In this document: one piece after another, positions 1,133 to 55,544 of the stretch
Numbering within the stretch: the first letter of the stretch is position 1
How the letters are laid out: every line of letters begins with the position of its first letter
Assembly (NCBI GenBank): GCA_001029795.1
Contig: CP011216.1
Coordinates: 418,577 to 482,576 of the forward strand
Length of the DNA: 64,000 nucleotides
DNA from: a candidate division Kazan bacterium GW2011_GWA1_50_15
GTDB lineage: Bacteria > Patescibacteriota > Kazan-3B-28
Direction of reading: 5' to 3'
The notes under the pieces: generated by a model
The model's input: the letters and a program-made list of their open reading frames with translations, nothing else
Databases searched by the model: none
Told to the model about the DNA's origin: nothing
Program-made: the position numbers and the translations under genes

Positions 1133-1133
1133 T

Positions 1134-3410: not shown

Positions 3411-3420
3411 CAGTCCCTGG

Positions 3421-4104: not shown

Positions 4105-4146
4105 ACCCCAAAAGACAAGATGTTGTTGCCGATCCACACCCCAGTC

Positions 4147-4221
4147 TGGTGCTCCTGGAAGGAATTGAACCCTCATCTCTCCCTTAGGACGGGATAGCTC
4201 TATCCGTTGAGCTACAGGAGC
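4147..4221 (-). tRNA. tRNA-Arg (anticodon CCT)
   Basis: reverse complement: acceptor gctcctg/caggagc, D-arm gctc-aacggata-gagc, anticodon loop gtCCTaa, T-loop ggttcaattcc, CCA encoded. Confidence 0.8.
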
Positions 4222-4364
4222 GTTTAATAGAACAAACTAATTGTATAGGGTAAAATCAAGCTGACGGCAAGCACTATTAGGATTATCATCCAAACGGTGC
4301 GTTCCCGATTTTTCTTTTTGCCGGTCATCGTTTCCATTATATATGAGTTGAACAGCTAAATATT

Positions 4365-5452: not shown

Positions 5453-5473
5453 GCAGGCTTATTTTTCAGGCGT

Positions 5474-5550
5474 GGGGGCGTAGCTCAGCTGGTTAGAGCG
5501 CTTCCCTGTCACGGAAGAGGTCGCGGGTTCGAGTCCCGTCGCTCCCGCCA
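5474..5550 (+). tRNA. tRNA-Asp (anticodon GTC)
   Basis: acceptor gggggcg/cgctccc, anticodon stem cttcc/ggaag with loop ctGTCac, T-loop gggttcgagtccc, CCA encoded. Confidence 0.85.
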
Positions 5551-35123: not shown

Positions 35124-37058
35124 ATGTGGGGGAAAATTCTGTGTTTGGGAGTCGGCGTTGGACTCGGGGTGGGTCTGGCTCAATTTGTGTTGGCAGACGA
35201 TACGATGCCGGATGTGGTCATCAGCGAAGTGGCTTGGGCCGGCAGCACTAAATCAGCATCCGACGAGTGGATTGAATTGGAGAATATGACCGGACAAGCG
35301 ATTGACCTAAGTGGTTGGCAACTGCTTATCGATAATCCTGGCACGGATTACGCCATTAGCTTAACTGGCATGATCCCTAGCTGGGGATTTTTTCTTGTCG
35401 CCAAATATTCCGAAACAAATCCCAATTCAGCATTAGAGGTGACCGTCAACCTTAACCGAGAAGAAGAAGGATTTGGGATTACGAATAGCGGTTTCTCTAT
35501 CGAGCTTACAAACCCCGAGGAGATACTAGTGGATACAGTATGGGATATTGATACCCCTCCAGACTTTGCCTATCGACACGGGGCAACTGACGCCTCTTCA
35601 ATGGAACGTCTGACACCAATCACCGATGGGGTGTTAACCAGTAGCTGGCAAGCTCCTAGCGATTCAGTCAATTTCAAAATTATAGAGGGTTCAACGAATT
35701 GGGGCACACCCGGTGCTGAAAATTCGATCATCACCGACCCACCCACGCTTACTACCATCACCCCGGCCACAGTGACGCAAGGCGAAACTCTGGGAGTAGA
35801 AAGTATCACCGGCACAGGATTTAGCTTAGAACCGCCTCCCGCGGTCCAGTTAATCCATGGGGGATTCGCGCTGGATGCCACAACCTTACATGTGGCTAAT
35901 CCTGAATTGATCGATCAAGCACGGTTTACCACTGTCTCAAACACGGAACTGGGGTGGTGGGACCTCACCCTGGTAAATCCCGACGGCAAGATAGCCACCT
36001 TACCCGATGCGGTAGAAGTGGTGGCCCCCGAACCCGAATACGATCTCAGCTCGACTGTTCGAATTAACGAAATTTATCCTCACCCGAACACCACCAGCAA
36101 CGATGAGTTTATCGAGCTTTATAATTTGGGGGATAAGGCAGTTAATCTAACTGGCTGGATATTGGATGATGTAACAACCGGCGGCTCGTCGCCATATACG
36201 CTTGATAATATAAATATTGGCGCCAAAAGTTTTTTGGTACTGTATAAACCGCAAAGTAAACTCACGTTGAATGACAATGGCGACTCTGTCTATCTAATTA
36301 GGCCGGATAACTTTGTGTTGGATCAAGTGGACTACACCAGCGCGGAGCAGGGTCAAACTTTGTCACGATTCGCGATCGGTTGGAAGTGGACTGCGACGCC
36401 GACGCCGAACGGCGCCAATGTCTTAACTGGGCCGGAGGACGACACGCCGCCAAGCGAACCGCCGTTGGAGCCAGACGACGAACCGTCGGCCCCGCAGCAT
36501 CAACCGGGCGAGCTGCTCATCACTGAATTGCTGCCCAACCCAAGCGGCGGGGAAGAATTTATCGAACTACACAATCCCGGGAAAACCGCAGTCGATTTGA
36601 CCGACTGGGAACTCAAGGACGCGGCTGGTAAAAAATATACCATCGGCGATTTCGATGTGACGATCCAAGCCGTTTCGCTCGCCGTCCAGCCGGGGCAGTA
36701 TATCGTCGTCACTCAGGGTATGTCCGGGTTGGCTTTGAACAATAGCGGCGGGGAAACGGTCAACTTGCTTGACCCCAATGGAGTAATTATTGCGAGCGTG
36801 TCATATCCAGACAAAGCGCCGGCCGGTGCGGCCTATGCGCTAGTGGACGATAGTTTGTGGACTTGGGTATCTAGCCCCACGCCGGGGCAGCCGAATGTGG
36901 TAATACTGTCCGAAGATATGACCGAACCGTTGCCAGAAATCATTGTACCCGAGACCTTGCCCGTGACCGGTAGCCCGATGCGACGTTGGCTGGGAATTTT
37001 GCTGACCAGTTTTGCCCTAGCAGGCGTGGTATTCTGGAAACGCAGAGAGAACTCTTAA
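35124..37058 (+). CDS. cell-wall-anchored surface protein with three lamin-tail domains and C-terminal LPXTG sorting signal
   Basis: signal peptide; three LTD-like units (ISEV...DEWIELEN...IDLSGWQL; RINEIYP...EFIELYN...NLTGWIL; LLITELLPNP...EFIELHN...DLTDWEL); C-terminus LPVTG, hydrophobic helix, KRREN tail. Confidence 0.75.
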   Translation: MWGKILCLGVGVGLGVGLAQFVLADDTMPDVVISEVAWAGSTKSASDEWIELENMTGQAIDLSGWQLLIDNPGTDYAISLTGMIPSWGFFLVAKYSETNPNSALEVTVNLNREEEGFGITNSGFSIELTNPEEILVDTVWDIDTPPDFAYRHGATDASSMERLTPITDGVLTSSWQAPSDSVNFKIIEGSTNWGTPGAENSIITDPPTLTTITPATVTQGETLGVESITGTGFSLEPPPAVQLIHGGFALDATTLHVANPELIDQARFTTVSNTELGWWDLTLVNPDGKIATLPDAVEVVAPEPEYDLSSTVRINEIYPHPNTTSNDEFIELYNLGDKAVNLTGWILDDVTTGGSSPYTLDNINIGAKSFLVLYKPQSKLTLNDNGDSVYLIRPDNFVLDQVDYTSAEQGQTLSRFAIGWKWTATPTPNGANVLTGPEDDTPPSEPPLEPDDEPSAPQHQPGELLITELLPNPSGGEEFIELHNPGKTAVDLTDWELKDAAGKKYTIGDFDVTIQAVSLAVQPGQYIVVTQGMSGLALNNSGGETVNLLDPNGVIIASVSYPDKAPAGAAYALVDDSLWTWVSSPTPGQPNVVILSEDMTEPLPEIIVPETLPVTGSPMRRWLGILLTSFALAGVVFWKRRENS

Positions 37059-37141: not shown

Positions 37142-37585
37142 ATGTTACGCATTGTTACTAACAACTTGGCCGCTACTCATAAGCTAGGTGAGGCTATTGG
37201 GAAGAACTTAAAAGGCGACGAGACATTGGCTTTGGTGGCACCACTCGGCGGAGGCAAGACCTCGTTCACGCAAGAGTTGGCCAAGGGTCTTGGCATAAAA
37301 AAATTAGTCATCAGCCCGACCTTCGTGTTGGAGCGGACATATAAAGGCCGGCACCCTCTGCATCATTTTGATATGTACCGCATCGAGGTGGAGGACGCCG
37401 ACTCGACCGGGCTGTCGGATATTTTGGGCGAGGCGGTCGTGGTGGTGGAGTGGGCGGAAAAGTTAAAGTCAGTGTTGCCGGAAGATACCATTTGGGCGAC
37501 CATCAAAATAGTAGGGGAGAATACCAGAGAGTTCATATTCGAGTACCCCGAAAGTCGTAGTTATGTCTTCCAAAATGTTAAATAA
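37142..37585 (+). CDS. tsaE: tRNA threonylcarbamoyladenosine biosynthesis protein TsaE
   Basis: Walker A APLGGGKTSF, about 147 aa, followed by tsaB. Confidence 0.8.
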   Translation: MLRIVTNNLAATHKLGEAIGKNLKGDETLALVAPLGGGKTSFTQELAKGLGIKKLVISPTFVLERTYKGRHPLHHFDMYRIEVEDADSTGLSDILGEAVVVVEWAEKLKSVLPEDTIWATIKIVGENTREFIFEYPESRSYVFQNVK

Positions 37586-38192
37586 TATTCTCGGTATCGA
37601 CACCTCCCACGAGGAAACTGTCATTGGTTTGAACGGGAAGCTCGTGGTGTGGAAGTCAGTCAGAAATCAATCAAAAGAGCTGCTGCCCAAGATAGATAAA
37701 CTGCTCCAAGAGCAGAAAATTAAGCCAGCCAAATTAAAAGGGGTGGCAGTGAATATTGGCCCGGGTTCATTCACCGGTCTGCGCGTCGGTGTCACCGTCG
37801 CCAATGGTTTTGGCTACGGCCTGAAACTGCCGGTGGCCGGCATCAGCGAGTTTGATGTCGTCAAAATGCTCTACCCAAAAGTGGATATTATCGTACTGGA
37901 CGCCAAGCGGGGAGAGCTGTTCATCCAGGCCAGTAAGACCGCACCAAAATTAATTCCGGCCGGAAAACTTGGTGGTCTCATCAAGACCGGCACCCGAGTT
38001 TATCTCGACGATTATCGTCTCGTGCCTGCCACCCATGAGCAACTAAAAAAAGCGGGAACGATCTACATTCCCAACCTTACCCGCAGTCAAAAAATGACGG
38101 CAATGCTGACCGCTAAGCTTCCTAAAAAATTCGCCCAAGTCCTGCCGGTCTATCTGCGCGGAGCAAACATCACCAAATCCAAAAAGAAATAG
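37563..38192 (+). CDS. tsaB: tRNA threonylcarbamoyladenosine biosynthesis protein TsaB (YeaZ-like)
   Basis: LGIDTS N-terminus and GPGSFTGLRVG motif; alternative ATG at 37575. Confidence 0.75.
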   Translation: MSSKMLNNILGIDTSHEETVIGLNGKLVVWKSVRNQSKELLPKIDKLLQEQKIKPAKLKGVAVNIGPGSFTGLRVGVTVANGFGYGLKLPVAGISEFDVVKMLYPKVDIIVLDAKRGELFIQASKTAPKLIPAGKLGGLIKTGTRVYLDDYRLVPATHEQLKKAGTIYIPNLTRSQKMTAMLTAKLPKKFAQVLPVYLRGANITKSKKK

Positions 38193-38300
38193 CCCCAGAC
38201 ATAAGTGCCCGGGGCCATTGGCTTGGGTCACATTCTTCTGCGCAGGCACTGCCTTCACTTGAGGATTGCGCCTCGTCCGTCCATCAGGCCACCGCCGTGT

Positions 38301-38336
38301 AAAAAAGTTCACCGGCACACCCGGTGCTTTTATTTT
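38301..38336. terminator. bidirectional intrinsic terminator
   Basis: hairpin caccgg-cacac-ccggtg preceded by AAAAAAG and followed by CTTTTATTTTA. Confidence 0.7.
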
Positions 38337-38337
38337 A

Positions 38338-38640
38338 TCAAAATCCCATCAAAAATATCTGCTCGCCGCTGGCGCGCCGAAGAGCGGGTGAGGTTTCAAT
38401 GGTAGAATTGCGAAAGTTCTCGGGATTATTTAGTATAGTCTGGACATAATCGGTGGGGGAGATGGTCGAAGCCGTAACCGTCGGCGCTTCGGCCACTGTC
38501 GCGGCTTGCGTGGGTTGCAGAATCAAGTTAATCTCTTCGCTAAGCCAGACCACGCCGGCCAGTAAAATGTAACCCACCACCAGTACACTAAACATGCCGA
38601 GAGTTAAAAACCCAAAATGTCGGCGCTGGTGCTTAATCAT
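38338..38640 (-). CDS. small membrane-anchored hypothetical protein
   Basis: 100 aa, one TM helix; last gene of the giant-protein operon. Confidence 0.5.
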   Translation of the reverse strand: MIKHQRRHFGFLTLGMFSVLVVGYILLAGVVWLSEEINLILQPTQAATVAEAPTVTASTISPTDYVQTILNNPENFRNSTIETSPALRRASGEQIFLMGF

Positions 38641-41600
38641 ATTTTGCCTTCTTCCAACATCTTCCTCTCTATGTCTGGCAGGGTGCTGATAAAGTAATCC
38701 TGGTCATCGAAGTAGAGAGACTTAGTCATCCGGATGAGAGTCCCTTGACCGATCACCCCACCAGAGAGCGAAGAATAAGTGGCGTTGATACTGATCGAAA
38801 TAAAGCGGTCAACCCGGCCGCCAAGATAGGTGATGTCAAATTCGATGGATGGGTCATCAGCGGTGCCTGACCAAACCAGACTAAAATAAGCCCGGTTGTA
38901 AAGGTTATCGCTTCCGCCCCGCACAGGCGACACCGTCTGGCCATTTTGGGTTACACGGACACTCTTGGGGTTCATATTTAGGCCCAGTTCGGCTACGGGC
39001 AGATGGCCCCAATTGTTCTTGGCAGCATTCTTAGCCGCAGTAGTTACTGGTCGGACGGTAACGTGTACTGACTGGCTAACGGCACTGGGCATCCGGTCAC
39101 GACTGATTACGAGCATACCGTTGCCGTACTGGTTACTCGCTGCCGGCGCCGCGCTTCGAGATAAAGTCTCTACGTCCTTGGGTCGGGCGTCAGCTGACAT
39201 TTGGTCGGCATAGTAGACCGCAGTCTGGGACCAGGGCACAACATCACCACCGAGAACGCTGACCGACTCATAGCGGTTCGCGCGACCACCTAAGTAGACT
39301 ATAGCGTATTTGGCCGAGCCATCGGTTAGGGGCTGGTTAAGAATTGCATCATAGCTTCCGTCTGGTTTCATTTGGAAAAACATCAGCCCCTGGATTGCAT
39401 AAGTGCCCTCTTGTTGGTGAACGGGGCTGCCCTGGGTAACCAAGGGGGTGGGGTCATCGCCCACATCTAGTTTTAGCGTGCTGATAATTCTATCAATGAT
39501 CGGTTTATAGTTGGTTTCATATTCATCCTTTGTGGCATAGATGTAGTTGAGGCTTGGATCATTACCACTGCGCGATGCGCCAGAAACAGAGATAGATAGT
39601 GGCTTGGCGTCAGCCAACGGCTGGCCATCCTTATCCACCAATTTTGCCTCAATGTAGAGAGGGCTCCCATCGGTCGGTAGCATATTAGCACTCTTAGTGA
39701 TAACAACTCGGTTGCCATAGAGATCGGGGTTAACAAAGTCCAAGGGAGCGACTTTGTCGGATAGGATCTCCTGGTTCGTGCCGGGCTGTTGGTTGCTGGG
39801 GATGGCTGGCTGACCGAGCGGGGTTGACCCAGAGCTAGAGGCTCCGCTGCTACAATAGAGTTTGTCTCCGCGTTTGACGTCGGTAACCGCGGTTAGTTTC
39901 CAAGCGCTGTAGAGCGCATCATAGTACGGCATTAGAATATTGCGGGTGTTGCCAAAGAAACTATCGATATAGGCGCGCACCTCGCTCTGCATCTTGGTTG
40001 ATTCGGCTAGCTGTTTGGTAAAGTCCCCGGAGACTAGCGAAAGCCCAAAGGCCACTCCGATCAGTCCGAGCCGCGGGAAGAGTTGGGAGTCGGGGGTATT
40101 GCGTATTTGATCGATAATGTCCAGCAGGGCGAAGTAAGCATAGGTGCCAATATCTTGCCGGTAGTTAGGCATGTCGACAGGATTACCGTTTTCATCCACG
40201 GCTTGCCCTACCCAAAAGATTGGGTTGTTAGTACCGTAGAGTGCACCGCGCCCACCCACAAATAGTATCCCGTCATCGAGCTTAGTAGCCGTAGTGTATG
40301 GCGACATCGACTGCAGGCTCAAGGCGGGTACCTCGCAGTAGTCGGTTGATTCGCCGGGGGCTTTCGAGAGCGGCTGGCCGCTGCCGTCCACTTGAATGGT
40401 CGACACGATCATTCCAGCCTTTTCATCACCGGGGCCCCGGGGATCCCTAGTGGTAGCGGTCCACTTAAAGGTTAGAAGCGGTTCCCAAGTATTTTCATCT
40501 AGGTCATAGATAAAAGTGCCGTTGTCGGCGCTGGTCAGGATATACTGGTTTTTATCCCAGCGGGTAGCAGTGACCAGGTTCTCCTGGAATGGCGAAGCGC
40601 TGGCTGAGTAAGTATCCAATGTCACGCCGGCTCGACTGTATAGACCAATCTTGGTCAACCGATCAACCAGCGCCAACCCCTGGCTTTTGAGCACCATGTT
40701 CTGCACCTGCTCGTTAGATAGCCCAGTCCCGAGCCCCGCTTTCTCTAGAGCCTGCCGGGTGTCCTCGTATATCGGCCCAGTAACTGTTGGGACACTCACT
40801 GTTTCGACTTGACCAGTGACAATATTATAGACATCAAAGGGCGCGATATTTTTAGTGTAAAAATCCTTGATCGTGTCACTGTACTGTTTACGAGGGAAAA
40901 GCCACCAGTCCAATTTGTGCCCCAAGATAGCAACAATGTCGCTAGTGGAAAGAGATTTTTCTTTGTTGAGATAGTGGTTAAAGAAATACCAGTCGAGCAT
41001 GTCACTGATATTCAGACTGGTGGCTGTACGAGGGTCTCCGTCCCCGCCGACCAGGTAGACTTTTTGAGGACGACCGCCAGTGTCGTACTGGACCAGGGGC
41101 ATGATGCCGGCCCGCGGGTAGCGCAGTTCGCCGGCAAAGTTAAATTCATCTTTAAAACCGTCATAAATAACAACATTAGTCAGCACCCCGCCAGTTAGAA
41201 GTACTTGACCATCGGTTAGCGGTACCATCACTAGATCAGAATCTGTGGCGATCGGTTCGGGCAGCGGTTCGAACCGCCCCGTGTCGAGATCCAATATTTC
41301 ACCTTCTTGTAAATAGTAGCTGGTTGACAGGTAACCAGAGCTGCCCTGCCAATTGCCAATAAACTTCATGATAACTTCTTTGATAGTCCCTAAGAATTTG
41401 GTTGGGCCGATCGAGCCCCGGAGGGCATGCTTAGGCGATTCTTTGATTATCAAATCTTTGTCGCTGTTGATACTAGGCAGATAGAGCCGTTCTTTGTCAT
41501 AAGTAACGCTAAATAGCCAACCACCCTGCCCATCATCGTAGGCTCCCGGCAGCCGCAGCCTGGAAAAGCGCGCGTACTGGTAGAGTTTTTGCAAACCCTT

Positions 41601-43052
41601 CAGCGTATCCGGCGAAGCGCTAGCATTAGTATTGGTATCTGGCTCGGGCAGCTTGGGGGCGGTATAGTCTTGGTCGCGAGATCCACCAGCAGACGACGAG
41701 GAGGACCCAGAGGACGAAGTCCCGCGCCGCTTAACAAAGGCCATAGTTTGAGCTTGCTGGTCTTGCCAGCGGACTTTAACATCGATGCCGATGGCGTCAT
41801 GAAATTCAAAGTCTTCGTCCCCAGCTACCCCAATGTTGTATGTATAACTATTGAGTCCGAAGAGGGGGGCGCTGGGGTAGAGAGTGGCCGTCACTTGGCG
41901 AGTCCGCCCGGTGAGATCTCGTTCCTCCACATTGGACAGGTCGGATCTGACTGCGGTGCCATTAGTTAACCGCAAAAATCGGCCGCCGCCCTGGATGGTG
42001 AGTGTCAGGTAGGCACGTGGGATGACCAACTGGCCAGCGCCGGTTGGTTCCGGAACCGACACTTTCACTGCAAGTGTGGACTGCTCGCCGGCGCTGATAG
42101 TCCCCGGGTCGGCTTCAGCCGTGACCTTAACTTCTTTAGTCTCGGGCTCCTCAATATCTTGGCCAGCCCGTTCTTGTTTAAGCCAATCATACGAGGGGAC
42201 TCCCCCCTTCAAGTGTTCTTCCATATCGCGGCTTGAGTCGTTGGGGTCGCTGCTCCAAAACGCTTCCGCCCGTCCGCCCAGGATCAAAACCTTGCTGGTC
42301 CCGGGGATTAGTACCGCCTGCTGCCCCTGACGCCCAACGAACATATTAGCCAGATAGCCGGATCGGATATCGGCGCTGTCATAGACCCCGGTTTCTTTAA
42401 AGTAGTCTTTGAGCCAAATAAACTCGTGCCGCTTAGTCATAAACACCTCGCCGGTGTAGGTTGATTCGTGCACCAGACCAATCCCCCAGACCCATTTAAA
42501 AGGGATGGGGCTGCCGGTGGCTATCTCGCCGCCTAGGAGCAATACATTGCCATCAGGCAGAAGGGTAGCGGAATGAAAGGCGCGGGGTAGGCGCATATTG
42601 TCGACGGCCTGGAAGGTTTCAGAATAAGCCGGTTCCTTGGTGTCCTTGGGAATATAGAGAAAGGCTTGGTGGGTTACTCTGCCGTTGTCGCCCACACCCC
42701 CAGCGATCAGTACGGTGCCGTCACCCAGAGCAGTGGCGGTGTGGCCGTAGCGCTTGTGTGCGCCAAGATAAAGTTGGAGCTCGCCCTCGGCGTGGATGGT
42801 GGAGACGGCTTGCTTCCCCTGCAGCGTGGCTTTGCCTCTCTCCCAGAAACCCGGCGGAGTTGTGTCACCCTGGCTATAAACCAAATATCGCCCAGGATAG
42901 TCGTCGCCTCGTTTGCCAGCCCCCACCCGCTTGAGAGCGTATTGGCTGCTAAAGTCCTGCACGGTTTCGGCCAAAGCCGGCAACGGCGAACTACCGCCCA
43001 GAATGGCGGCGGCGACTAGCCAGAGGATGATCTTTTGTGTTTGTTTTGGCAT
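38637..43052 (-). CDS. giant secreted Kelch-repeat (beta-propeller) surface protein
   Basis: start moved to ATG at 43050-43052 (MPKQTQK plus signal peptide IILWLVAAAILGGSSPLPALA); the ORF-track start 43163 would overlap the upstream gene by 95 nt; Kelch-like GHTATALGDGTVLIAGG and RAFHSATLLPDGNVLLLGG. Confidence 0.7.
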   Translation of the reverse strand: MPKQTQKIILWLVAAAILGGSSPLPALAETVQDFSSQYALKRVGAGKRGDDYPGRYLVYSQGDTTPPGFWERGKATLQGKQAVSTIHAEGELQLYLGAHKRYGHTATALGDGTVLIAGGVGDNGRVTHQAFLYIPKDTKEPAYSETFQAVDNMRLPRAFHSATLLPDGNVLLLGGEIATGSPIPFKWVWGIGLVHESTYTGEVFMTKRHEFIWLKDYFKETGVYDSADIRSGYLANMFVGRQGQQAVLIPGTSKVLILGGRAEAFWSSDPNDSSRDMEEHLKGGVPSYDWLKQERAGQDIEEPETKEVKVTAEADPGTISAGEQSTLAVKVSVPEPTGAGQLVIPRAYLTLTIQGGGRFLRLTNGTAVRSDLSNVEERDLTGRTRQVTATLYPSAPLFGLNSYTYNIGVAGDEDFEFHDAIGIDVKVRWQDQQAQTMAFVKRRGTSSSGSSSSSAGGSRDQDYTAPKLPEPDTNTNASASPDTLKGLQKLYQYARFSRLRLPGAYDDGQGGWLFSVTYDKERLYLPSINSDKDLIIKESPKHALRGSIGPTKFLGTIKEVIMKFIGNWQGSSGYLSTSYYLQEGEILDLDTGRFEPLPEPIATDSDLVMVPLTDGQVLLTGGVLTNVVIYDGFKDEFNFAGELRYPRAGIMPLVQYDTGGRPQKVYLVGGDGDPRTATSLNISDMLDWYFFNHYLNKEKSLSTSDIVAILGHKLDWWLFPRKQYSDTIKDFYTKNIAPFDVYNIVTGQVETVSVPTVTGPIYEDTRQALEKAGLGTGLSNEQVQNMVLKSQGLALVDRLTKIGLYSRAGVTLDTYSASASPFQENLVTATRWDKNQYILTSADNGTFIYDLDENTWEPLLTFKWTATTRDPRGPGDEKAGMIVSTIQVDGSGQPLSKAPGESTDYCEVPALSLQSMSPYTTATKLDDGILFVGGRGALYGTNNPIFWVGQAVDENGNPVDMPNYRQDIGTYAYFALLDIIDQIRNTPDSQLFPRLGLIGVAFGLSLVSGDFTKQLAESTKMQSEVRAYIDSFFGNTRNILMPYYDALYSAWKLTAVTDVKRGDKLYCSSGASSSGSTPLGQPAIPSNQQPGTNQEILSDKVAPLDFVNPDLYGNRVVITKSANMLPTDGSPLYIEAKLVDKDGQPLADAKPLSISVSGASRSGNDPSLNYIYATKDEYETNYKPIIDRIISTLKLDVGDDPTPLVTQGSPVHQQEGTYAIQGLMFFQMKPDGSYDAILNQPLTDGSAKYAIVYLGGRANRYESVSVLGGDVVPWSQTAVYYADQMSADARPKDVETLSRSAAPAASNQYGNGMLVISRDRMPSAVSQSVHVTVRPVTTAAKNAAKNNWGHLPVAELGLNMNPKSVRVTQNGQTVSPVRGGSDNLYNRAYFSLVWSGTADDPSIEFDITYLGGRVDRFISISINATYSSLSGGVIGQGTLIRMTKSLYFDDQDYFISTLPDIERKMLEEGKI

Positions 43053-43068
43053 ATTGTGATGCGAAACC

Positions 43069-46000
43069 TTACGTGCCTGGACGTCTCTGTCCTGACTCGA
43101 AGAAGTTATTGAACAAAAAGACGAAGTCGAGCGCGTCAACGAAGGTGTTGTGATTAAAGTCACCGAACACTGGAGTGCGGGCGTACTCTTGCTGGAAGAC
43201 CGCGAAATCTAGAGCATTGATGGTATTGTCGCGGATAAAGTCAATGTCGCCGATCAGAGCGGTTGGCTGGGTAGTAACGTTCACTGCGCTAGTGCCGCCG
43301 ATGAAGGAAGCGACCACCGCCAAATGCTGTGCCGGTTTGACCCAGACGTCATAGACTCGGCCGGCCAGGACGGCAATCTGCGGCAAGCCAACCACTTGCC
43401 GGGTAGCGCTGAGTTTATAGACTCCGTCGATCACCGGCGACTGACCTCCAGCGACTAGCACGAACACATAGACCGAATCGGCAGTGGTGTAATCGTAGGC
43501 GCTGCCCTCCAGCGGCACGGTAACGGTGAGGCTTATCCGAGGACCGGTGGTGCGGGTTTTGGTAATACTAGTGCCGTTGGCGGTGCCCTCGGTCGTGATC
43601 GGGCCGACATTCGGGACTACTGCACGAGCATCGATCCGGGCTATCCCTTCGGTATCGTCCGCCAGATAGGTGGTAGTGGCTACTCCGTTAACAATTGGGA
43701 GTTTGGTCTGGTTATTGGCAAAACTGCCGCCGCCGGTTAGCACCAAGTCTACTTTCTGGTCTGCCGGGACTGTATCCGAACCACCTTGCGACTGGCGCAG
43801 TGTCACAGTGATCGTAGAAGAGAGTTGATTACCGGCCAGATCGATAGCCGTGGGGTTAGCCACGACCGTAAAGTCTAGATCGTGGGTGGCTACGGTCTTG
43901 TAGATCTGCACGCTGGCGGTTAGCAAGGGACCACCATTGACTGCGCTGGCGCGGGCGGTAATGGTCGCTACCCCCGGCGTGGTATTCACCGTGTAGGTCG
44001 AAGTGGCCTTACCTTGAGTGTTAGTGTCAGCTTGGATGGGCTGCACGGCACCTCCGTCGGTACCTTTATCAAAGGCTACCGTCCGTCCGCCTATCCGAGT
44101 AAAACTGCCGGACGCGTTATCGAGCCGGCCGACCGTTGCCGTCAGCGCCGAGGTCTCCCGGCCATCAGGGACTAGTTGGGTGGGATTGGCCCGCAGATCG
44201 ATGAGATATCCGCCTGGGACGGTAACTAAAAAGTCCTGTTCGCCGCCGCCGCCAGAGATGAGCATAGCGGCTCGTTCAACTTTAGTTCCGATCTCAGTTA
44301 CCACCTCAACGTTCCACCAACCCGGCGTAGCGTTAGGTGAGATTTCAAGCGTAGCTTGCAAAGCGTCTAGATCATCAACTATTACATTGGTCGCCTTGAC
44401 CCCGGTTGGATCGCCGATATCGGTGGGCGCATAGATGTCACTAGGGGTGAACGTAACCGTCGTATAGCCGGAATTGGTAACATCAAAATTGGTATCATCG
44501 GTACCTGTGATCGAAACCGTTAGAGTTCTCCCGCGGTCACTCTTGTTGGGAGTAATAGCGGTGACCTGAGGTACGTTGGGTTGACCAGCCGGCAATACCT
44601 CAAAGTACTGGGGCTGATAACTGGGATTAGGACCTAACCAAGTGAAGATCCAAGCCCCGTACTGAGGAACACTTTGCAGGACTAAGACTTGCCAGGGACC
44701 AGTTGGGGCGGCCGCTCCGATATCGATACCGAACCGTACCGTATGCGGGTCCACAAGAGTTTTGCTTTTATCCCAAACTATTTGAGCGCTGCCGCCAACT
44801 AATTTATTAATGCTCAGCCCAGGGGCAGCGAGAAACTTTTTATTCGTACCGGAGCCTATCTCGGTCCATGCGGTTAACTCGGACGAGTTGGGCTGGGTTC
44901 CGTTAGTGGGATTGAACAGGCTGGCTGAGGCACCATTGACCGTCCCTTGAGTATCGGGTGTAAACGAGGCACCCTGGTCATTGCTAACAAAATGGATAAG
45001 CGAACCGTCCGGGGCGGGGGACCCGTCGGAGAGCCGCAAGTAGGCGGTAACGTTAGCGGTTTTGCCCGGTTCCAACACCGCGTCACTGCTGATAATTTCT
45101 AGTTGATAGAACATGAGCGACGGGTCGGCTTCAACGACCAGAAAACGGACCGGGGGTACTCCGAGGGCGGTGGCCTCGATATAAGTTAACCCCGCTAACG
45201 TCCCGGCACGATAAGTTACCCGCGCCATCCCTTGAAGATCGGTCTTGACCGTACTATCCCCCACAAACTGACCGTTAGTTGGATGGCCGGAGACAATACT
45301 CGACATCCGGTTGAAGGTTACATTAACGTTGGATAAGGGGCCTCGGTTATCCATCAGCTTGACGCTCAGCTCGGGTGCATCTGTCCCGTTGGCAGTCAGG
45401 TAGATCGTAGAGGGTGACTTAGAAACAAAGCCACCGGGTTTCACAAAATAGATAGCGGCACCTTGGTTAAACTCCACTCCCTTCCCTACGACCTCAACTG
45501 TGCTATGAGTCCCTTGCACCCCACTAGCAGGCGAGACCGCGGTAACTAGCGGCCGGAAGCTGACCACCGTCTCGCTCATGGCCGCATAGTTCCAGGCTCC
45601 CTCGGTCAGTTCAAATGTGACAAATAGCCGGGCATCTCCAGCTTCGGCCGAAGTGAGATTGAGTTTTATCTGTCCATCGGCATCCGAAATAACTGCGGCC
45701 GCTAACCCGAACGATTCGGGCGGACCGAATGAGTCGACGATCGGGTAGGCTGGACTAAATTCGCTAAAGGTATCTTGGCGGAAGGCGCCGCCAGGGGTCT
45801 TAGCATACTCGGCGATCCAAGTCTTTACCCCTTCGACCGGCTTATTATTCTCATCAAACAGAGTGGCGGTTAACTCGACCTTGTCTATGTCGTCGGCATA
45901 GAGACCGGCCGTGCGATCCGCCTCCAGCGTGGCCGATTGCGGTTGGCCGAATGATCCGCTATACAACGGCCCGATATACTCTACTAAACTTGAATTGCTG

Positions 46001-48366
46001 GGTAACCCGCCAGTAGACGCCGAGCCGCCGGTCAGATACATCGCCAAAACAGTCCCGACCTTTCGGCCGCTGGAATTAAACCGGTCGATAGTAACCGGTG
46101 CGGCGGCCGGGAAGATGAGATTAGTATGGGCCATCGGCTCGAACCGGCGGGCTTCCGGAGGCGCATTGGTTAAGAACGGCCACATCCACTGAGCGGCGCG
46201 TTTGAGCGTGCCATTTTCTACGCTGTAACCGAACACGCGGGTGTAACCGCTGCCGGCGACCTGGTTATAAGCCGGGTAGAAGAAATTAAACGGGACCGAT
46301 TGTAGCCCCCCCGCAACTATAGCGCGGTCGTTGATGCTGACCGACATGGCGGCAAAGCGCTGATTATCGTCGGCGATACCTTCAAATGCGTCATTGGTAG
46401 CCGCCAACCCGCCCCAATCATCCACTACCCAATCGCTGCCGTTAAAAGATTGAGAGATCTGCCGCACTATCGGCCGGCCAGCAAGTAGGGACGACTCATT
46501 ACTCAATCCACCTGCCAGTTGGGTTTTGTTACTTAGACTGGTTAGGGCCGGCATAAACAGTCCGCCGCGTTTGTCTACGTCAATGAACGGCACATACGTC
46601 GATGGCAGCAGCCAACCGGTCTGGGCGCCGTTGTGGAAGCTGGTGGCGTACCAACCGTTGCCGTTTAACTGCAGCGCAGCGTGTCCAGCTAGGCGATACG
46701 GTTTGGCTAGTTGACCACCGCTAGGCTGAGATGTCCGCGGATGCATACCATCGTCCAGCACCCAAAAAGGCGAGTCGCTGTCTGCGCTCCCTCGCCCAAT
46801 ACTGGCACCGCCAAAAATGGTTAACTTGCCGTCAACCACGGTCAGCTGATGACCGTACCGTCCCTGAGGAACCGGCATCATGTTGCGATCGATCACGTTG
46901 GGATCGCCCGGTAAGATTAATTCTTCTTGCACGAATACGCGCAGAAGACCGATCTTCACCACTCGGGTCGCCACACCGGAGACATCAGGATCCCACTTAG
47001 TGGTCGCATACGGATAGTCATAGTTAATGGGGGTTCCACTGGTGGTAGTTTGAGCGGCATCGATAGTCAGCTCGCGCGCTAGCCAATTAGTGTCGCTACC
47101 GGCGCTAAAACTAATGTGCGCCTCGACGGTGGTAAAGAATCGCCCGCCAGTAATGGCCTGAGCGTAGATCTTGCCGTAGTCGGGAGCGGTAGGAGGAACT
47201 ATAATCTGAGCTTGGGCTCGGGTGATCAATTTTTGCCATCTTTTACCGAGCGCTTGAGTCAAATCTTTGATCACCCCAACATCTGGCGTAGCCGTAGTGT
47301 CTGGAGTAGTGATCGCCTCGGGGGTGCTCACCGCTAGCAGGGGATCACTGCCAGCCGATGTTTCTTGCCCATCCGTGAATCCATCCCCATCAGTATCAGC
47401 CCTGGTCGGATCGGTCCCTAGCAGGATCTCTAGCCAGTCAGGGAGACCGTCGCCGTCGGTATCGAGTAGGCCAGTTGTTGGCCAAGTTGATGCCCCGGCA
47501 GGGAGTTGTGTGATGAGGTTACCCTGATGGATATAGAGCGGATGCCGACCTACAGTAGGCTTACTGGATAAATTCTGGTTATCCCAAATAACCTTATCCA
47601 TCAACGGATTATCGAGGTTGGTGGTTAGGGGTCCGTAACCAGACGCACCGGCCCAAATGTTGCCAAAGATACCCCCGGTAATGTGAACAGTCCCAACTGA
47701 ATCCACCGCCACTTCCGGCAAATAATGGACATCCGTTACTTTACTAACGATCTGCCAGCCCGCACTAACATTATGAAGATCTAGTTTTTCAATTGTGGCG
47801 TAGACCCCTTGATAGAGCTGAATCAGTGGTTGACCGTTAGCGGGATTGAGCAACTGGGGCGCTACATGCATATCGCCCACGATCTGGTAGAGCCAGTCGG
47901 AGAATCCGTCTTGGTTGGTATCAACCGCGATCGCCCGTCCAGCGGCATGGCCAAAAACCATCTGCGGTCCCACCTGCCAGCTACCGATCGGTTTACCGTC
48001 CTGGTCTAGCGACAACTTTTCCGTTGACTGCAATGCTTCGACTAAGTTGCCGGAAGTCTGCAAACCCCCCAGGGCCCACAGCTGATACTGTACGCTGCCA
48101 TCACTTTGTTTGACTGCCGTATAGACCAGAGCGTGGTTACTGCGCTTTGCACCCATGGCCGGCGCAGAACTCCAATTCAGCTGGTCGCTTAAATTACTGC
48201 TGATCTCGGCTTTGATGCCGAATAGCCTTAAGAGAAAATCGAGCTGCGAAAAGAATAGTACTGCGGCAACTACGGCAACAATACTAATAACGCCGATGCT
48301 AAATCGGCGGCTGTTCCCGGGGACGCTCAACCAGGTTGTGAACTGTTGCCACGGGTTCAAAGTCAT
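43069..48366 (-). CDS. giant membrane-anchored surface protein with Kelch-like, Ig-like, calcium-binding Asp-rich repeats and a dockerin-like C-terminus
   Basis: 1765 aa; N-terminal TM anchor; DTDGDGLPDW and DTDGDGFTDG repeats; Kelch-like GHQLTVVDGKLTIFGG; C-terminal GDIDFIRDNTINALDF...GDFNHNTFVDALDF. Confidence 0.7.
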   Translation of the reverse strand: MTLNPWQQFTTWLSVPGNSRRFSIGVISIVAVVAAVLFFSQLDFLLRLFGIKAEISSNLSDQLNWSSAPAMGAKRSNHALVYTAVKQSDGSVQYQLWALGGLQTSGNLVEALQSTEKLSLDQDGKPIGSWQVGPQMVFGHAAGRAIAVDTNQDGFSDWLYQIVGDMHVAPQLLNPANGQPLIQLYQGVYATIEKLDLHNVSAGWQIVSKVTDVHYLPEVAVDSVGTVHITGGIFGNIWAGASGYGPLTTNLDNPLMDKVIWDNQNLSSKPTVGRHPLYIHQGNLITQLPAGASTWPTTGLLDTDGDGLPDWLEILLGTDPTRADTDGDGFTDGQETSAGSDPLLAVSTPEAITTPDTTATPDVGVIKDLTQALGKRWQKLITRAQAQIIVPPTAPDYGKIYAQAITGGRFFTTVEAHISFSAGSDTNWLARELTIDAAQTTTSGTPINYDYPYATTKWDPDVSGVATRVVKIGLLRVFVQEELILPGDPNVIDRNMMPVPQGRYGHQLTVVDGKLTIFGGASIGRGSADSDSPFWVLDDGMHPRTSQPSGGQLAKPYRLAGHAALQLNGNGWYATSFHNGAQTGWLLPSTYVPFIDVDKRGGLFMPALTSLSNKTQLAGGLSNESSLLAGRPIVRQISQSFNGSDWVVDDWGGLAATNDAFEGIADDNQRFAAMSVSINDRAIVAGGLQSVPFNFFYPAYNQVAGSGYTRVFGYSVENGTLKRAAQWMWPFLTNAPPEARRFEPMAHTNLIFPAAAPVTIDRFNSSGRKVGTVLAMYLTGGSASTGGLPSNSSLVEYIGPLYSGSFGQPQSATLEADRTAGLYADDIDKVELTATLFDENNKPVEGVKTWIAEYAKTPGGAFRQDTFSEFSPAYPIVDSFGPPESFGLAAAVISDADGQIKLNLTSAEAGDARLFVTFELTEGAWNYAAMSETVVSFRPLVTAVSPASGVQGTHSTVEVVGKGVEFNQGAAIYFVKPGGFVSKSPSTIYLTANGTDAPELSVKLMDNRGPLSNVNVTFNRMSSIVSGHPTNGQFVGDSTVKTDLQGMARVTYRAGTLAGLTYIEATALGVPPVRFLVVEADPSLMFYQLEIISSDAVLEPGKTANVTAYLRLSDGSPAPDGSLIHFVSNDQGASFTPDTQGTVNGASASLFNPTNGTQPNSSELTAWTEIGSGTNKKFLAAPGLSINKLVGGSAQIVWDKSKTLVDPHTVRFGIDIGAAAPTGPWQVLVLQSVPQYGAWIFTWLGPNPSYQPQYFEVLPAGQPNVPQVTAITPNKSDRGRTLTVSITGTDDTNFDVTNSGYTTVTFTPSDIYAPTDIGDPTGVKATNVIVDDLDALQATLEISPNATPGWWNVEVVTEIGTKVERAAMLISGGGGEQDFLVTVPGGYLIDLRANPTQLVPDGRETSALTATVGRLDNASGSFTRIGGRTVAFDKGTDGGAVQPIQADTNTQGKATSTYTVNTTPGVATITARASAVNGGPLLTASVQIYKTVATHDLDFTVVANPTAIDLAGNQLSSTITVTLRQSQGGSDTVPADQKVDLVLTGGGSFANNQTKLPIVNGVATTTYLADDTEGIARIDARAVVPNVGPITTEGTANGTSITKTRTTGPRISLTVTVPLEGSAYDYTTADSVYVFVLVAGGQSPVIDGVYKLSATRQVVGLPQIAVLAGRVYDVWVKPAQHLAVVASFIGGTSAVNVTTQPTALIGDIDFIRDNTINALDFAVFQQEYARTPVFGDFNHNTFVDALDFVFLFNNFFESGQRRPGT

Positions 48367-48411
48367 TTTATTTTTATTTACTCCTATGGAAATCCTCCAA
48401 TGTATTAGCTC

Positions 48412-48440
48412 ATTATACTATAATTCCCCCAAAAAGTCAA
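48412..48440 (-). promoter_or_regulatory. consensus sigma70 promoter of the giant-protein operon
   Basis: minus-strand TTGACT-17-TATAAT (rc of agtcaa 48435-48440 and attata 48412-48417), then AGGAG about 14 nt upstream of the ATG at 48366. Confidence 0.7.
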
Positions 48441-48457
48441 GTGCTAAGCTGCCGGGT

Positions 48458-49495
48458 TCACTCGATCCCTAGATCCTCCAGAGACGAGCCACCCGAGGCG
48501 TCGTCGCCGCCTGGCTCTTCATCGCGTCCAGCCAAGTAAAAACCGGTAATGGCCTCGCGGATATAGTCCTCGTCAGCCACAGTAAAGGCCAATGGAGTGT
48601 CGAACTGGGCAGAGAGTTCGCCAGTAGCCTCGGGTGAGGGATCGGCGATGGCGACCGTGATAGCTTCTGGCGATCTAGCGATAGGGATAGCTGAATACTT
48701 AGTAGCCAAGTCGTAGGGCATCACTCTGACTACGGCAGGATCAATTTCATAACGCGATAGGTCGAGCGATGGGATGTGATATTGACTGCCAAGCGCTTGG
48801 ACGAGATCATCGCGGCTGATAATCTTTTTATCTAACAAAATGCGGCCCAAACGTTTGCCGGTGCCTTGTTGTTCCTGCAGTGCCATAGTCAGGTCGCTAG
48901 GGGAGACCATCTGACGGCTGATCAGGATCTCTCCCAGCCGATGGATAGGCCGAGTAACCCGCGCCGCTATTTCATTGACCCCTTCTGACCGACTCCGCTC
49001 ACTGTAACTTGTGATCAAGTCAGCCACATCGCGGGCGTTCGGGATCGAACGCAGCTCAAAAAATCCTTCCTTGCCAGCGGACTGAACGGTGATGTTGCCG
49101 AAGCGAATCAACGAGGCTAATACCCCCTGCATGCTGACCCGAACGTCTTGGACTTGGTTAAGATTCATCTGCGAGACTCGGCGATTGAACAAACTAATTA
49201 ATTGGATATCGATCAGACGTTCGGGCAGCAGCACCCAGACGTCCATGTACCAAAAGATCCACTGCATCATAAAAAAGTTAACTACGAACACTAAGTAGAG
49301 GCCGCCGAACAGCCACATGCCAGTCTCAACGGCGGGTTCGTCCGCTAGCCCCAGGGTTTGGAGGGCTACAAGTAAAATCACTAGCGGCACCAGCATGACT
49401 ATTGACCACCACAGGGGCGACAATAGATCCAGAACGTGACGCCGCAGATAGAGTGGGGCGACTGACGATGGATTAGTAAATGTTACTTCTGTCAT
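48458..49495 (-). CDS. membrane protein with N-terminal PH-like domain and C-terminal GspE-N (MshEN-type) domain
   Basis: two TM helices plus PH-like segment; C-terminal repeats LGEILISRQMVSPSDLTMALQEQ and GKRLGRILLDKKIISRDDLVQALGSQ typical of T2SS-E N-terminal domains; no ATPase domain. Confidence 0.55.
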   Translation of the reverse strand: MTEVTFTNPSSVAPLYLRRHVLDLLSPLWWSIVMLVPLVILLVALQTLGLADEPAVETGMWLFGGLYLVFVVNFFMMQWIFWYMDVWVLLPERLIDIQLISLFNRRVSQMNLNQVQDVRVSMQGVLASLIRFGNITVQSAGKEGFFELRSIPNARDVADLITSYSERSRSEGVNEIAARVTRPIHRLGEILISRQMVSPSDLTMALQEQQGTGKRLGRILLDKKIISRDDLVQALGSQYHIPSLDLSRYEIDPAVVRVMPYDLATKYSAIPIARSPEAITVAIADPSPEATGELSAQFDTPLAFTVADEDYIREAITGFYLAGRDEEPGGDDASGGSSLEDLGIE

Positions 49496-49497
49496 GG

Positions 49498-49692
49498 TTA
49501 GAACTGAGAAGCGATGATCGCCAGCGAGACCGAACTGATGATCACGCCGGCTAGGATGACCCCGTAGATAGAGATAGCTAAGTAGGAGTTGTCGCCAGGC
49601 AACCGGAATCGAATAACGTGAAAGATGTTGATCCCGGCATAGGCCAGGCCAAGCAGTAATAGCAATACGTAGATGGGGATCATGATACTCAT
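49498..49692 (-). CDS. small two-TM membrane protein
   Basis: 64 aa, two hydrophobic helices; ATGA overlap with ruvB stop. Confidence 0.5.
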
Positions 49693-50708
49693 GGGACGAA
49701 CAATTCCGGTTTCTGACTAGTTAGCCCTAAATGCTGATAAGCCCTGACGGTGGCTACTCGGCCCTGGGCGGTGCGCTGCAGAAACCCTTCTTGCAGCAAG
49801 TACGGTTCATAAACGTCCTCAATGGTCTGCCGCTCCTCAGAGATGGCAGCTGCCAAGGAGCTGAGGCCCGCGGGACCACCCTTGAACTGAGTTATCAAAG
49901 TATACAAGATCTTCCGGTCGACCTCGTCCAGACCGATCTCGTCGATAGTAAGCAGTTTAAGAGTAGCTCGAACCACCGCTTCGGTGATCCGCCCGCTATT
50001 TTTAACTAGGGCATAGTCGCGAACTCGCTTCAAGATCCGGTTGGCCGTTCGCGGCGTGCGCCGAGACGATCTAGCTATCAGCTGAGCAGCCTCGGAGGGC
50101 AGATCTACCTGCAGGATCCGAGCCGACCGTTGAAGAATCTTTTCAATATGATCAACTTCATAAAAATCTAGCCGATAGGTAGATCCGAACCGGTCGCGCA
50201 TGGGAGATGAGATCAGACCGATCCGAGTGGTCGCCCCGATCAAGGTAAACTTGGGCAAATCGAGTTTTAACGAACGGGCCGATGGACCCTTGCCGACGAT
50301 AATATCCAAACAGTAGTCCTCCATAGCTGAATACAACACCTCCTCCACCGGCCGGCTTAATCTATGGATCTCGTCAATGAACAGGATGTCGTTATCTTGG
50401 AGATTGGTGAGAATGGCGGCGATATCGCCGGCTCGCTCAACTGCTGGGCCAGAAGTAGTCCGCAACCCCACCCCCATCTCGTGCGCGATAATGTGCGCCA
50501 GGGTGGTTTTCCCGAGACCCGGCGGACCGAACAGCAAAATGTGGTCCATGGGTTCACGCCGCTTGCGAGCCGCCTCAATCGCGATAGCCAAGCCGGCCTT
50601 GGCTTTGTCCTGACCAACATAGCCGGCAAAGTCATGCGGCCGCAAACTGACATCAAGTTCTTCCTCTCCTTGGAGGGAGATGGGGTCGATCACGCGCGGG
50701 GTTGTCAT
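49689..50708 (-). CDS. ruvB: Holliday junction branch migration DNA helicase RuvB
   Basis: Walker [12 protein letters not shown], Walker [10 protein letters not shown], sensor and winged-helix regions. Confidence 0.9.
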
Positions 50709-54222: not shown

Positions 54223-54380
54223 ATTTTATCATAGACTACTCCGCCTGGTTTGACAGAACGTTACCGGTTAAACTAGAATCAAGTGCGTATCTGGGGTTGA
54301 CAAATACAAAACCACGAGCCAAGGGGCAGAGCGACTGTTCGTGATTTTGAGAGGAGCCCCGCTGGACAGCGGGACAACGA

Positions 54381-54454
54381 GGGTCCGTAGCTTAGTGGTA
54401 AAGCAGTTGCCTTTTAAGCAATTGATGCAGGTCCGATTCCTGCCGGACCCACCA
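54381..54454 (+). tRNA. tRNA-Lys (anticodon TTT)
   Basis: acceptor gggtccg/cggaccc, D-arm gctt-agtggta-aagc, anticodon loop ctTTTaa, T-loop aggtccgattcct, CCA encoded. Confidence 0.85.
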
Positions 54455-54457
54455 AAC

Positions 54458-54488
54458 AAAAATCCACCGTCTGGTGGATTTTGTGTTT
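54458..54488 (+). terminator. intrinsic terminator after tRNA-Lys
   Basis: hairpin aatccacc-gtct-ggtggatt followed by TTTGTGTTTG. Confidence 0.8.
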
Positions 54489-54626
54489 GAATGTGGTTCG
54501 GTACGGAATTGAACCTTTGCCGTAGGCATAGGTTCGCCCATGAGGCCGCCTTATAAGATGTTGAGTTTACCATAAAGCGGCGAATGGCGGGGCCCCACAG
54601 CAAAAGGGGGCACTCCTCGCCAGACC

Positions 54627-55544
54627 TTACATCGCTGGCTGCCAATGGCCGAGCTGGTCTAGGAGGTTCTGGCTATCTAACTCTTCAGCAACGTTGGGAG
54701 CGGCGATAGAGATTTTTTCGTTTTGCCGACTGAGCCCTAAATCAAGACTAAATGAGACTGGCACACTATTAGCTAAATAGATGTCCTCGATCTTGATCCG
54801 AGCTAACTGAAAGTTACGTTTATTGATCCAGATGTCGGCAGTGTAGTTATTGAGCTGGTCTAATAATGACAGGTCGCCAGTAGAGGTACCGGTGATAGCA
54901 CTCACCTGAGCGGCTAGATAGCGCATATTATCCGGACGCAGTTTGGCTTGGTAGCGATAAGCGCGTTGACCGTAAACGGTCTCATCGGGAAATGTTTGGG
55001 ATACCTCAAAAATAGTTGTAGAGGCGATCATATTGTGGATAGCTAAGACTTGTTCGTCAGTGAGTTGTTGCCCCACAGATGCCCCCAGGCGATTACCGGA
55101 AGCATCTGGAGCTGGTCGCTTGACCCGATACCACCGGCTGTCAGCTCCCAACGATACTGGCAGCAGCGTAGGAAAGTTGAGATCAGTGAGTTTGAAATAG
55201 GTATAGTCCGGCAAACCGATCAGTTGCCCAGCGAGCGTTAGGTCACCTTGGCTGGCGGTACCTTGCATGCTGGCCTGAAGTGAGACGCGAGGATTAGTAA
55301 TATCCGGGCTCATCACATCTCCGGTCAGACGGAACTGGGCCGAGCTGAGCTTTTGACCTAAAACGGTAGATATTCCTCCGCTCAGACTGAGCGAGGCGTC
55401 ATAATGAAAACTATGCAGATCGGCTAGAGCAGTGCTGAATCGTTGAACTACCTCTCCGCTACTGAGCGACCGAGACGAACAGGCTGACAAGAAAATCATG
55501 GCTCCCAACAGCAGCCATCCGAGTTGTCTAATAGATTTTGGCAT
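54627..55544 (-). CDS. putative lipoprotein
   Basis: start moved to ATG at 55542-55544 (MPKSIRQLGWLLLGAMIFLSACSS: signal peptide with lipobox LSAC); upstream ORF-track extension has no convincing start. Confidence 0.55.
   Translation of the reverse strand: MPKSIRQLGWLLLGAMIFLSACSSRSLSSGEVVQRFSTALADLHSFHYDASLSLSGGISTVLGQKLSSAQFRLTGDVMSPDITNPRVSLQASMQGTASQGDLTLAGQLIGLPDYTYFKLTDLNFPTLLPVSLGADSRWYRVKRPAPDASGNRLGASVGQQLTDEQVLAIHNMIASTTIFEVSQTFPDETVYGQRAYRYQAKLRPDNMRYLAAQVSAITGTSTGDLSLLDQLNNYTADIWINKRNFQLARIKIEDIYLANSVPVSFSLDLGLSRQNEKISIAAPNVAEELDSQNLLDQLGHWQPAM

Follow-up and report, generated by a model that had tools for sequence, protein, structure and literature searches.

A conserved giant surface-protein cassette, most likely adhesive, in Kazan-class Patescibacteria

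A life attached to other cells is presumed for candidate phyla radiation bacteria, and to our knowledge almost nothing is known of what mediates that attachment outside Saccharibacteria. Here we analyse a stretch of 64,000 nucleotides from candidate division Kazan bacterium GW2011_GWA1_50_15 (contig CP011216.1, positions 418,577 to 482,576; hereafter the window), in which three adjacent genes, termed A, B and C, encode two giant predicted surface proteins and a small predicted membrane protein. We propose that this cassette is an envelope-associated giant surface-protein module of Kazan-class Patescibacteria, and that adhesion is its most likely task. The cassette takes up 1.7% of the 0.6-Mb contig, is preceded by a near-consensus promoter at 12 of 14 related loci, occupies a fixed genomic slot and contains the fastest-evolving gene of its block. 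On these grounds it is a reasonable first candidate for a structure of host contact or of the envelope in the Kazan lineage.

The genes lie in tandem on one strand and are bounded by a promoter and a terminator-like hairpin:
Gene A, 43069..48366, minus strand: ATG start, 1765 residues; predicted membrane-anchored giant surface protein.
Gene B, 38637..43052, minus strand: 1471 residues from ATG; predicted secreted Kelch-propeller protein.
Gene C, 38338..38640, minus strand: 100 residues; predicted single-pass membrane protein.
Promoter, 48412..48440, minus strand: sigma-70-type, TTGACT-17 nt-TATAAT, inside the 91-nt gap upstream of A.
Shine-Dalgarno-like element, 48381..48385, minus strand: AGGAG, 14 nt before the ATG of A.
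Intrinsic-terminator-like hairpin, 38300..38326, minus strand: CACCGG-GTGTG-CCGGTG (hairpin proper 38326-38310) followed by AACTTTTTT.

A gap of 16 nt separates A from B, and the stop codon of B overlaps the start of C in an ATGA (gap of -4 nt). One strand, minimal gaps, one upstream promoter and one downstream terminator together support A-B-C as a single predicted transcription unit. A first-pass annotation made from the sequence alone had described an operon of two giant surface proteins and a small membrane protein over 38338-48440, a range that runs exactly from the C stop codon to the -35 hexamer, and the open reading frames (ORFs), gaps, promoter and terminator confirm that description. 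The promoter it named can be read directly: it is the sole 11/12 match on both strands of 37500-49800 (12.3 kb), is unchanged across three orthologous loci and recurs as TTGAC[TA]-17-TATAAT ahead of A, in the corresponding gap, at 12 of 14 related loci. The AGGAG site, which had been called good, is indeed present and conserved, with AGGAGTAAA invariant in the three loci compared, but its 14-nt spacing from the ATG of A lies beyond the usual optimum, yet is itself conserved. The terminator hairpin starts 12 nt past the C stop codon, has a downstream T-run (TTTTTT) and sits in the gap toward the convergent tsaB gene. Gene B has a longer option from an in-frame upstream GTG (ORF 38637-43163, 1508 residues); orthologues and public gene calls, with an MPKQTQKI/MQKQTQKI start, favour the ATG at 43052.

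Several assemblies carry the same intact genes. The 10.1-kb stretch is 100% identical to LCQY01000001.1 (601,557 bp, GCA_001004375.1) and is also 100% identical in two independent assemblies (JGI and Logan); none of these three disrupts the genes. Only the re-assembly GCA_003527425.1 (L006; DPXF01000008.1, 4717-9964), made from the same population, differs, with two small deletions relative to the window that split gene A into ORFs of 872, 680 and 149 residues. Further genes on that contig are likewise shortened, and we read the split as an assembly defect, not as a sign of a pseudogene. This broken copy is what speaks for the giant ORFs being mis-assembled or decaying. Against such an artefact stand the three intact and identical assemblies, full-length orthologues in many species, ORF lengths far above chance (about 1e-34 for A and 6e-29 for B at this base composition) and the lack of repeats that could mislead an assembler, and we consider it extremely unlikely. 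A search for the signature of a diversity-generating retroelement or of recent domain duplication turned up no meaningful direct repeats across the window, nor any tandem repeats within the operon. In public records A appears as AKM84920.1/KKW25846.1 under the names 'ricin B lectin' or 'PA14 domain protein', for which we found no Pfam support at E up to 0.1; B (AKM84919.1) and C (AKM84918.1) are both recorded as hypothetical. In the protein database the cluster is represented by the 149-residue L006 fragment, and for that reason the homology search with A as query did not return A itself.

Protein A is built from an N-terminal anchor, a divergent region with calcium-binding-type repeats, an array of Ig-like domains and a dockerin-like C-terminus:
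Anchor, 48244..48309, minus strand: A residues 20-41, hydrophobic stretch forming a single N-terminal transmembrane anchor after RR.
Propeller-like region, 45967..48204, minus strand: A residues 55-800, divergent and probably Kelch-like beta-propeller (weak evidence).
TSP3 repeats, 47332..47475, minus strand: A residues 298-345, two bacterial Asp-rich calcium-binding-type repeats (PF18884).
Ig-like array, 43597..45924, minus strand: A residues 815-1590, beta-sandwich domains (Pfam and family hidden Markov model).
Dockerin-like module, 43078..43269, minus strand: A residues 1700-1763, C-terminal, duplicated EF-hand-like loop-helix (profile evidence).

The single hydrophobic stretch after RR, together with the high conservation of the first 50 residues (76-80% identical to orthologues versus 40-46% identity overall), suggests a signal-anchor that keeps the N-terminus inside and leaves most of A outside. 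For the SRRF and RRHF motifs that precede the anchors of A and C, the positive-inside rule is a simpler explanation than a Tat-type reading. The first-pass annotation had listed such an anchor along with Asp-rich calcium-binding-type repeats and Ig-like segments, and each is borne out. The TSP3 repeats (PF18884, TSP3_bac) score 43.9-55.9 bits against a cut-off of 25, have DxDxDGxxDxxE motifs at residues 302 and 324, and among A-like proteins are confined to the window's own clade. In the Ig-like array, Invasin_D3 (48.3 bits versus 33) and Big_1 (40 versus 34.9) exceed their Pfam cut-offs, and a family hidden Markov model resolves five Big_1/invasin-D3-type copies at residues 815-923, 984-1071, 1095-1173, 1391-1478 and 1501-1587. 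Protein A is acidic and has no cysteine. No LPxTG, lipobox or RTX (GGxGxD) motif and no catalytic Pfam domain, glycoside hydrolase or other, was detected in it, its full-length sequence has no significant match to PDB sequences, and a search of 5.8 billion clusters with its TSP3 repeats masked detected only four homologues.

The C-terminus of A had been called dockerin-like, and the profile searches support this assignment, although the Dockerin_1 model (PF00404) stays below its Pfam cut-off of 22.9 bits, scoring 14.2 bits on the whole protein and 20.1 bits on the segment. Searched alone, the A C-terminus finds the dockerin 2vn5_B as its best PDB match (E 0.008), in an alignment that takes in both duplicated segments. 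When a profile of four family C-termini was used instead, 23 of the top 25 PDB matches were dockerin-bearing chains, with 3ul4_B first (E 9.8e-5); myosin light chains account for the other two, at E 0.4. The second loop of the module, DFNHNTFVDALD, has the canonical calcium-loop spacing DxNxNxxxDxxD; the first is degenerate. We therefore regard this end of A as a dockerin-like module with a sequence-level relationship to solved dockerins.

The description of A as a Kelch-repeat protein, made in the title of the first-pass annotation, was by contrast overstated, since all its Kelch matches are sub-threshold and the assignment is firm only for B. Pfam Kelch models match A residues 498-580 below cut-off at E 2.8e-5 to 3e-3; the best Kelch-type match is PF24681 (24 bits versus 50), and Kelch_2 reaches 18 bits against 21.3. 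Only 2 of 118 Kelch proteins align to residues 498-580, and hhalign of the A family with a Kelch alignment returns a probability of 19.5%. An AlphaFold model of the N-terminal 786 residues, built from four sequences, has a mean predicted local distance difference test (pLDDT) score of 34 and is confident only at residues ~70-210; with this low-confidence model as query, the top 50 Foldseek matches are all Kelch domains (E 3e-4 to 6e-3). The N-terminal ~750 residues of A are thus probably propeller-like, and given the poor four-sequence model the Kelch label for A is tentative.

Scanning species-representative genomes with an alignment of the A family yielded 15 loci, all from metagenome-assembled genomes of Patescibacteria and all sharing a common framework. 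In Kazan RIFCSPHIGHO2_01_FULL_44_14, as in the window, the order leading up to A is S8 protease, BacA, a small exporter, RuvB, a 64-residue gene and an MshEN/bPH gene, and the order that follows is A-B-C, convergent TsaB, TsaE, an LTD protein and then RNase Y. An A-like giant protein is present in 15/15 loci (1720-2668 residues where complete), and all 14 that are full-length combine an anchor at the N-terminus with a dockerin-like module at the other end. Genes resembling B are restricted to five lineages (the window, L011, L017, L018 and L023) and are absent from at least seven loci; what lies between A and the final gene varies, being nothing, a B-like protein or unrelated exported proteins of 465-615 residues. 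A small membrane protein of the C family closes the cluster in at least nine other loci. Because A is found at every locus, C is usual and B is limited to five lineages, the gene content indicates a constant core of A and C with B as an optional accessory. Identity to the window protein across loci is 25-51% for A, 65-85% for RuvB and 32-76% for the MshEN/bPH gene, and by this measure A is the fastest-evolving gene of the block.

Protein B combines a signal peptide, Kelch blades and long stretches of orphan sequence:
Signal peptide, 42969..43052, minus strand: B residues 1-28, Sec-type, ending PALA|E, also kept in the orthologue.
Kelch blades 1-3, 42213..42848, minus strand: B residues 69-280 (Pfam, homologues, AlphaFold/Foldseek).
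Ig-like beta-sandwich, 41727..42134, minus strand: B residues 307-442, between Kelch blades (AlphaFold strands at pLDDT 50-77).
Further Kelch blades, 41013..41309, minus strand: B residues 582-680 (homologue alignment and AlphaFold).
Conserved C-terminal domain, 38649..39797, minus strand: B residues 1086-1468, no known fold relative (homology to P0241).

Pfam, homologues and predicted fold firmly agree that B carries real Kelch blades, and the Sec signal and multiple blades reported for B in the first-pass annotation hold. Kelch_4 matches residues ~105-190 at 42.4-43.3 bits (cut-off 21.6), hundreds of Kelch proteins align to residues 69-260, and residues 582-650 match consecutive blades of the small plain Kelch proteins P0248 and P0250. 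An AlphaFold model of residues 28-1000 has a mean pLDDT of 54, rising to 63-93 over the predicted blades at 105-262 and to 81-90 over those at 584-672. In Foldseek searches of the PDB the B model retrieves galactose oxidase/AA5 enzymes (E 7e-8) and a sialidase, superposes on Keap1, KBTBD5 and Krp1 at 2-4 Å over ~165 columns, and gives KLHDC2 alignments that cover ~610 query columns, a span compatible with one propeller carrying a large insertion. Profile searches and a predicted structure thus place Kelch blades in B, and profile searches a dockerin-like module in A. The blades of B are interrupted by an insertion of ~300 residues, whose Ig-like segment matches Ig hidden Markov models at E 1e-3 and resembles an Ig domain of A; this resemblance (BLASTP E 0.03) is the best between the two proteins, and no paralogy of A and B was detectable.

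About 800 residues of orphan sequence follow the blades, and full-length B has no significant match to PDB sequences. Residues 1086-1468 share 42% identity over 435 residues with the C-terminus of P0241, a protein of 1881 residues that joins an S8 subtilase (GTSFAAP serine motif) to Kelch blades and a B-like C-terminal domain, a fusion that hints at a link of the B C-terminal domain to proteolysis. P0241 and the Kazan B orthologue both begin with the MQKQTQKIILWL signal. An exhaustive HMMER search with residues 272-1471 against 1.84 billion representatives found a B family of 11 proteins, comprising the orthologue, a few relatives at 27-30% identity and P0241. Across ten members the invariant residues are Gly, Leu and Arg together with the Tyr, His and Thr of the Kelch YGHT motif, with no conserved Cys and no conserved His or Tyr beyond the Kelch core motif; B itself contains two Cys only. 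No lipobox, LPxTG or RTX motif and no catalytic Pfam domain, glycoside hydrolase or other, was detected in B.

In protein C a variable Pro/Thr/Ala linker connects a single transmembrane helix to a conserved tail of ~35 residues that ends FL(M/V/L)GF across the family; the tail of the window C, ending FLMGF, is predicted to be extracellular, and C has no LPxTG or RTX motif. A profile of the C-family helix and juxtamembrane segment (..LLxGVxxfSqEIN..) matches the anchors of A-like proteins at eight loci (L009-L024; i-E 2e-9 to 0.015, zero compositional bias). Among the anchors compared in the window (A 48244-48309, C 38530-38620), that of A is not matched. The C family and A-like proteins may have an anchor or sorting motif in common.

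A cell-surface role, as the first-pass annotation had proposed, is the best reading of the export signals and domain types, and the layout of A, from anchor through a proximal propeller-like and TSP3-bearing region and an Ig stalk to a distal dockerin-like module, suggests adhesion. In the model that we think most probable, A would be held in the cytoplasmic membrane by its one N-terminal helix with ~1,700 residues projecting outward: a membrane-proximal, divergent propeller-like region with calcium-binding TSP3 repeats, a middle stalk of Ig-like domains and, at the far tip, a calcium-dependent dockerin-like module. B would be a Sec-exported accessory of some lineages, its Kelch propeller the likely ligand-binding part, and C a membrane-anchored partner within the cassette. 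The tip module and the propellers could then serve as binding sites for a host cell, a glycan or another surface protein, and the cassette may diversify quickly as the binding target changes. Several points weigh against this model. Surface display and adhesion are predictions from genes and models, no cohesin or other defined receptor was found among the window proteins scanned, and an episymbiotic lifestyle is only presumed for Kazan bacteria. The N-terminal 800 residues of A are not reliably modelled (mean pLDDT 34), and the remainder of B (~900 residues) has no Pfam or PDB relative, a profile of its C-terminal domain returning nothing from the PDB. Moreover, the conserved gene order reaches into housekeeping genes, and having the MshEN/bPH gene, the S8 protease or the LTD protein as neighbours is accordingly of little weight.

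A more far-reaching possibility, which we regard as doubtful, is that A and C with swappable secreted accessories such as B constitute a class-wide, undescribed host-recognition organelle of Kazan bacteria. The dockerin-like tip would then be a universal docking element for a non-cohesin or highly divergent receptor, possibly borne by the host, and Kelch propellers or the FLxGF tail of C might assemble the complex; if so, swaps of the accessory gene would set host range.

Other functions have to be weighed against adhesion. The first-pass annotation had placed a dockerin-bearing membrane protein beside a secreted partner, a pairing that can be read as a complex in which the tip of A would bind a cohesin-like domain of B and tether B to the cell. 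The dockerin-like module is real at the profile level, B is without an anchor of its own, the two genes are predicted to be co-transcribed, and B has beta-sandwich regions as well as a conserved C-terminal domain lacking a known fold. However, no cohesin was found in overlapping B segments searched with Pfam or in the PDB profile search, nor, at the thresholds used, anywhere in the three cassette proteins or in 30 others from the window. At least seven related loci keep the dockerin-like tip without a B gene, and the constant partner of A is C, so that a cohesin-dockerin-type complex of A and B seems to us quite improbable. A structural role, with A (and C) forming a regular outer layer in the manner of an S-layer coat, would accord with the strong conserved promoter, the acidic, Cys-free sequence with its calcium-binding and Ig-like domains, the single copy always found at a fixed locus, and fast evolution, which is frequent in surface-exposed proteins. 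But no S-layer family or SLH domain was detected and no lattice-forming domain identified, and a membrane-anchored stalk that ends in a binding module is a layout more characteristic of fibrillar adhesins; we judge a coat of this kind unlikely.

Least credible among these functions is that of extracellular enzymes, with catalytic propellers (copper radical oxidase, glyoxal oxidase or sialidase-like) on a dockerin-bearing scaffold. In its favour, AA5 copper radical oxidases and a sialidase are among the top fold matches of the B model, NCBIfam GlxA matches B weakly (14.9 bits versus 800, E 0.006), and one distant relative of B carries an S8 protease fusion. The fold matches nevertheless reflect the common Kelch/propeller fold, and neither A nor B has a glycoside hydrolase or other catalytic Pfam domain. 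Because the B family has neither a conserved Cys nor a conserved His/Tyr set outside the Kelch motif, a copper-radical-oxidase function (galactose oxidase/GlxA, AA5) is unlikely for B, and we rejected that candidate for lack of a conserved Cys-Tyr cofactor or copper ligands. Catalytic propellers of any of these kinds are very unlikely in our estimation.

The cassette can also be compared with known systems. Like fibrillar Ig adhesins of the invasin/intimin Big_1 type, A has a Big_1/Invasin_D3 array as a long stalk with a distal binding module; unlike them, it relies on an N-terminal membrane helix for anchoring, in a bacterium that shows no hint of an outer-membrane beta-barrel anchor, lacks LysM, beta-barrel, C-type-lectin tip, LPxTG and RTX features, and ends in a dockerin-like tip. 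Motif and Pfam searches of A, B and C found no signature of RTX/type I-secreted or sortase-anchored adhesins. The tip shares with type I and non-cellulosomal dockerins a duplicated loop-helix, a canonical second loop and a profile that retrieves dockerins almost exclusively, whereas its sub-cut-off Pfam score, degenerate first loop and lack of an attached glycoside hydrolase set it apart from cellulosomal dockerins, as does the absence of any cohesin or scaffoldin in the window from the cellulosome itself. A passage of PMC9012536, citing Peer et al. 2009, describes dockerin-like modules without cellulosomes as widespread in bacteria and archaea, with partners that often are unknown. Protein B resembles secreted bacterial Kelch proteins of the Kelch_4/galactose-oxidase central-domain type in its blades at residues 69-280 and 582-680, and differs from them in its Ig-bearing insertion of ~300 residues, its ~800 residues of orphan sequence and its family of only 11 relatives. 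In cultivated Saccharibacteria, several surface adhesins, one of them a dockerin-domain protein (SEML1_0315), are essential for epibiotic growth (PMC10633639; PMC11665869). These share with the cassette their phylum, a reduced genome and a kind of envelope protein with glycan- or protein-binding modules (PMC10633639); Kazan bacteria, by contrast, are uncultivated, and the likeness drawn here is one of protein kind. By analogy, the proposed adhesion agrees with the Saccharibacteria adhesins.

Nothing established is overturned by these results, since the genes were already public under unsupported names and giant adhesins in such bacteria are an established idea. New here are a corrected domain map, a class-wide conserved slot, the proposed A and C core with interchangeable accessories, and a dockerin-like tip that appears universal among full-length A-like proteins, which offers a natural example of such a module used outside cellulose degradation.

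The gene content around the cassette, with RNase Y, TsaE/TsaB, RuvB, BacA, DUF5667 proteins and numerous tRNAs, is in keeping with a Patescibacteria genome of reduced size. The next gene upstream of A (48458-49495, minus strand) encodes bPH_2 and MshEN, a domain of cyclic-di-GMP-binding type, is itself preceded by the 64-residue gene and adjoins A in 15/15 loci; in L009 and L017 it is an ORF of ~225 residues (called as 198 in L009) that matches about half of the window protein, and the precomputed domain list for L009 has bPH_2 and no MshEN. Two further exported proteins of the neighbourhood lie in conserved synteny, one of 644 residues with three lamin-tail domains (35124-37058, plus strand) and an S8 subtilase of 734 residues with Ig-like C-terminal domains (Big_1, N_BRCA1_IG; 52018-54222, minus strand).

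Elsewhere in the window, the segment 19517-27519 (minus strand) contains two genes for extracytoplasmic function (ECF)-type sigma factors (25037-25606 and 26989-27519), each followed by a DUF5667 protein (23280-24263 and 25948-26919). Beside them, a protein of 1239 residues (19517-23236) has no Pfam match and may be another regulated orphan envelope protein. A tRNA-Lys(UUU) gene (54381-54454, plus strand) falls within the mechanically called ORF 54268-54645 (minus strand), which is for this reason probably not a gene. Six tRNA genes (Thr, Pro, Gly, Pro, Arg and Asp) are clustered at 1058-5550 of the window, and two more (Glu and Lys) lie at its end.

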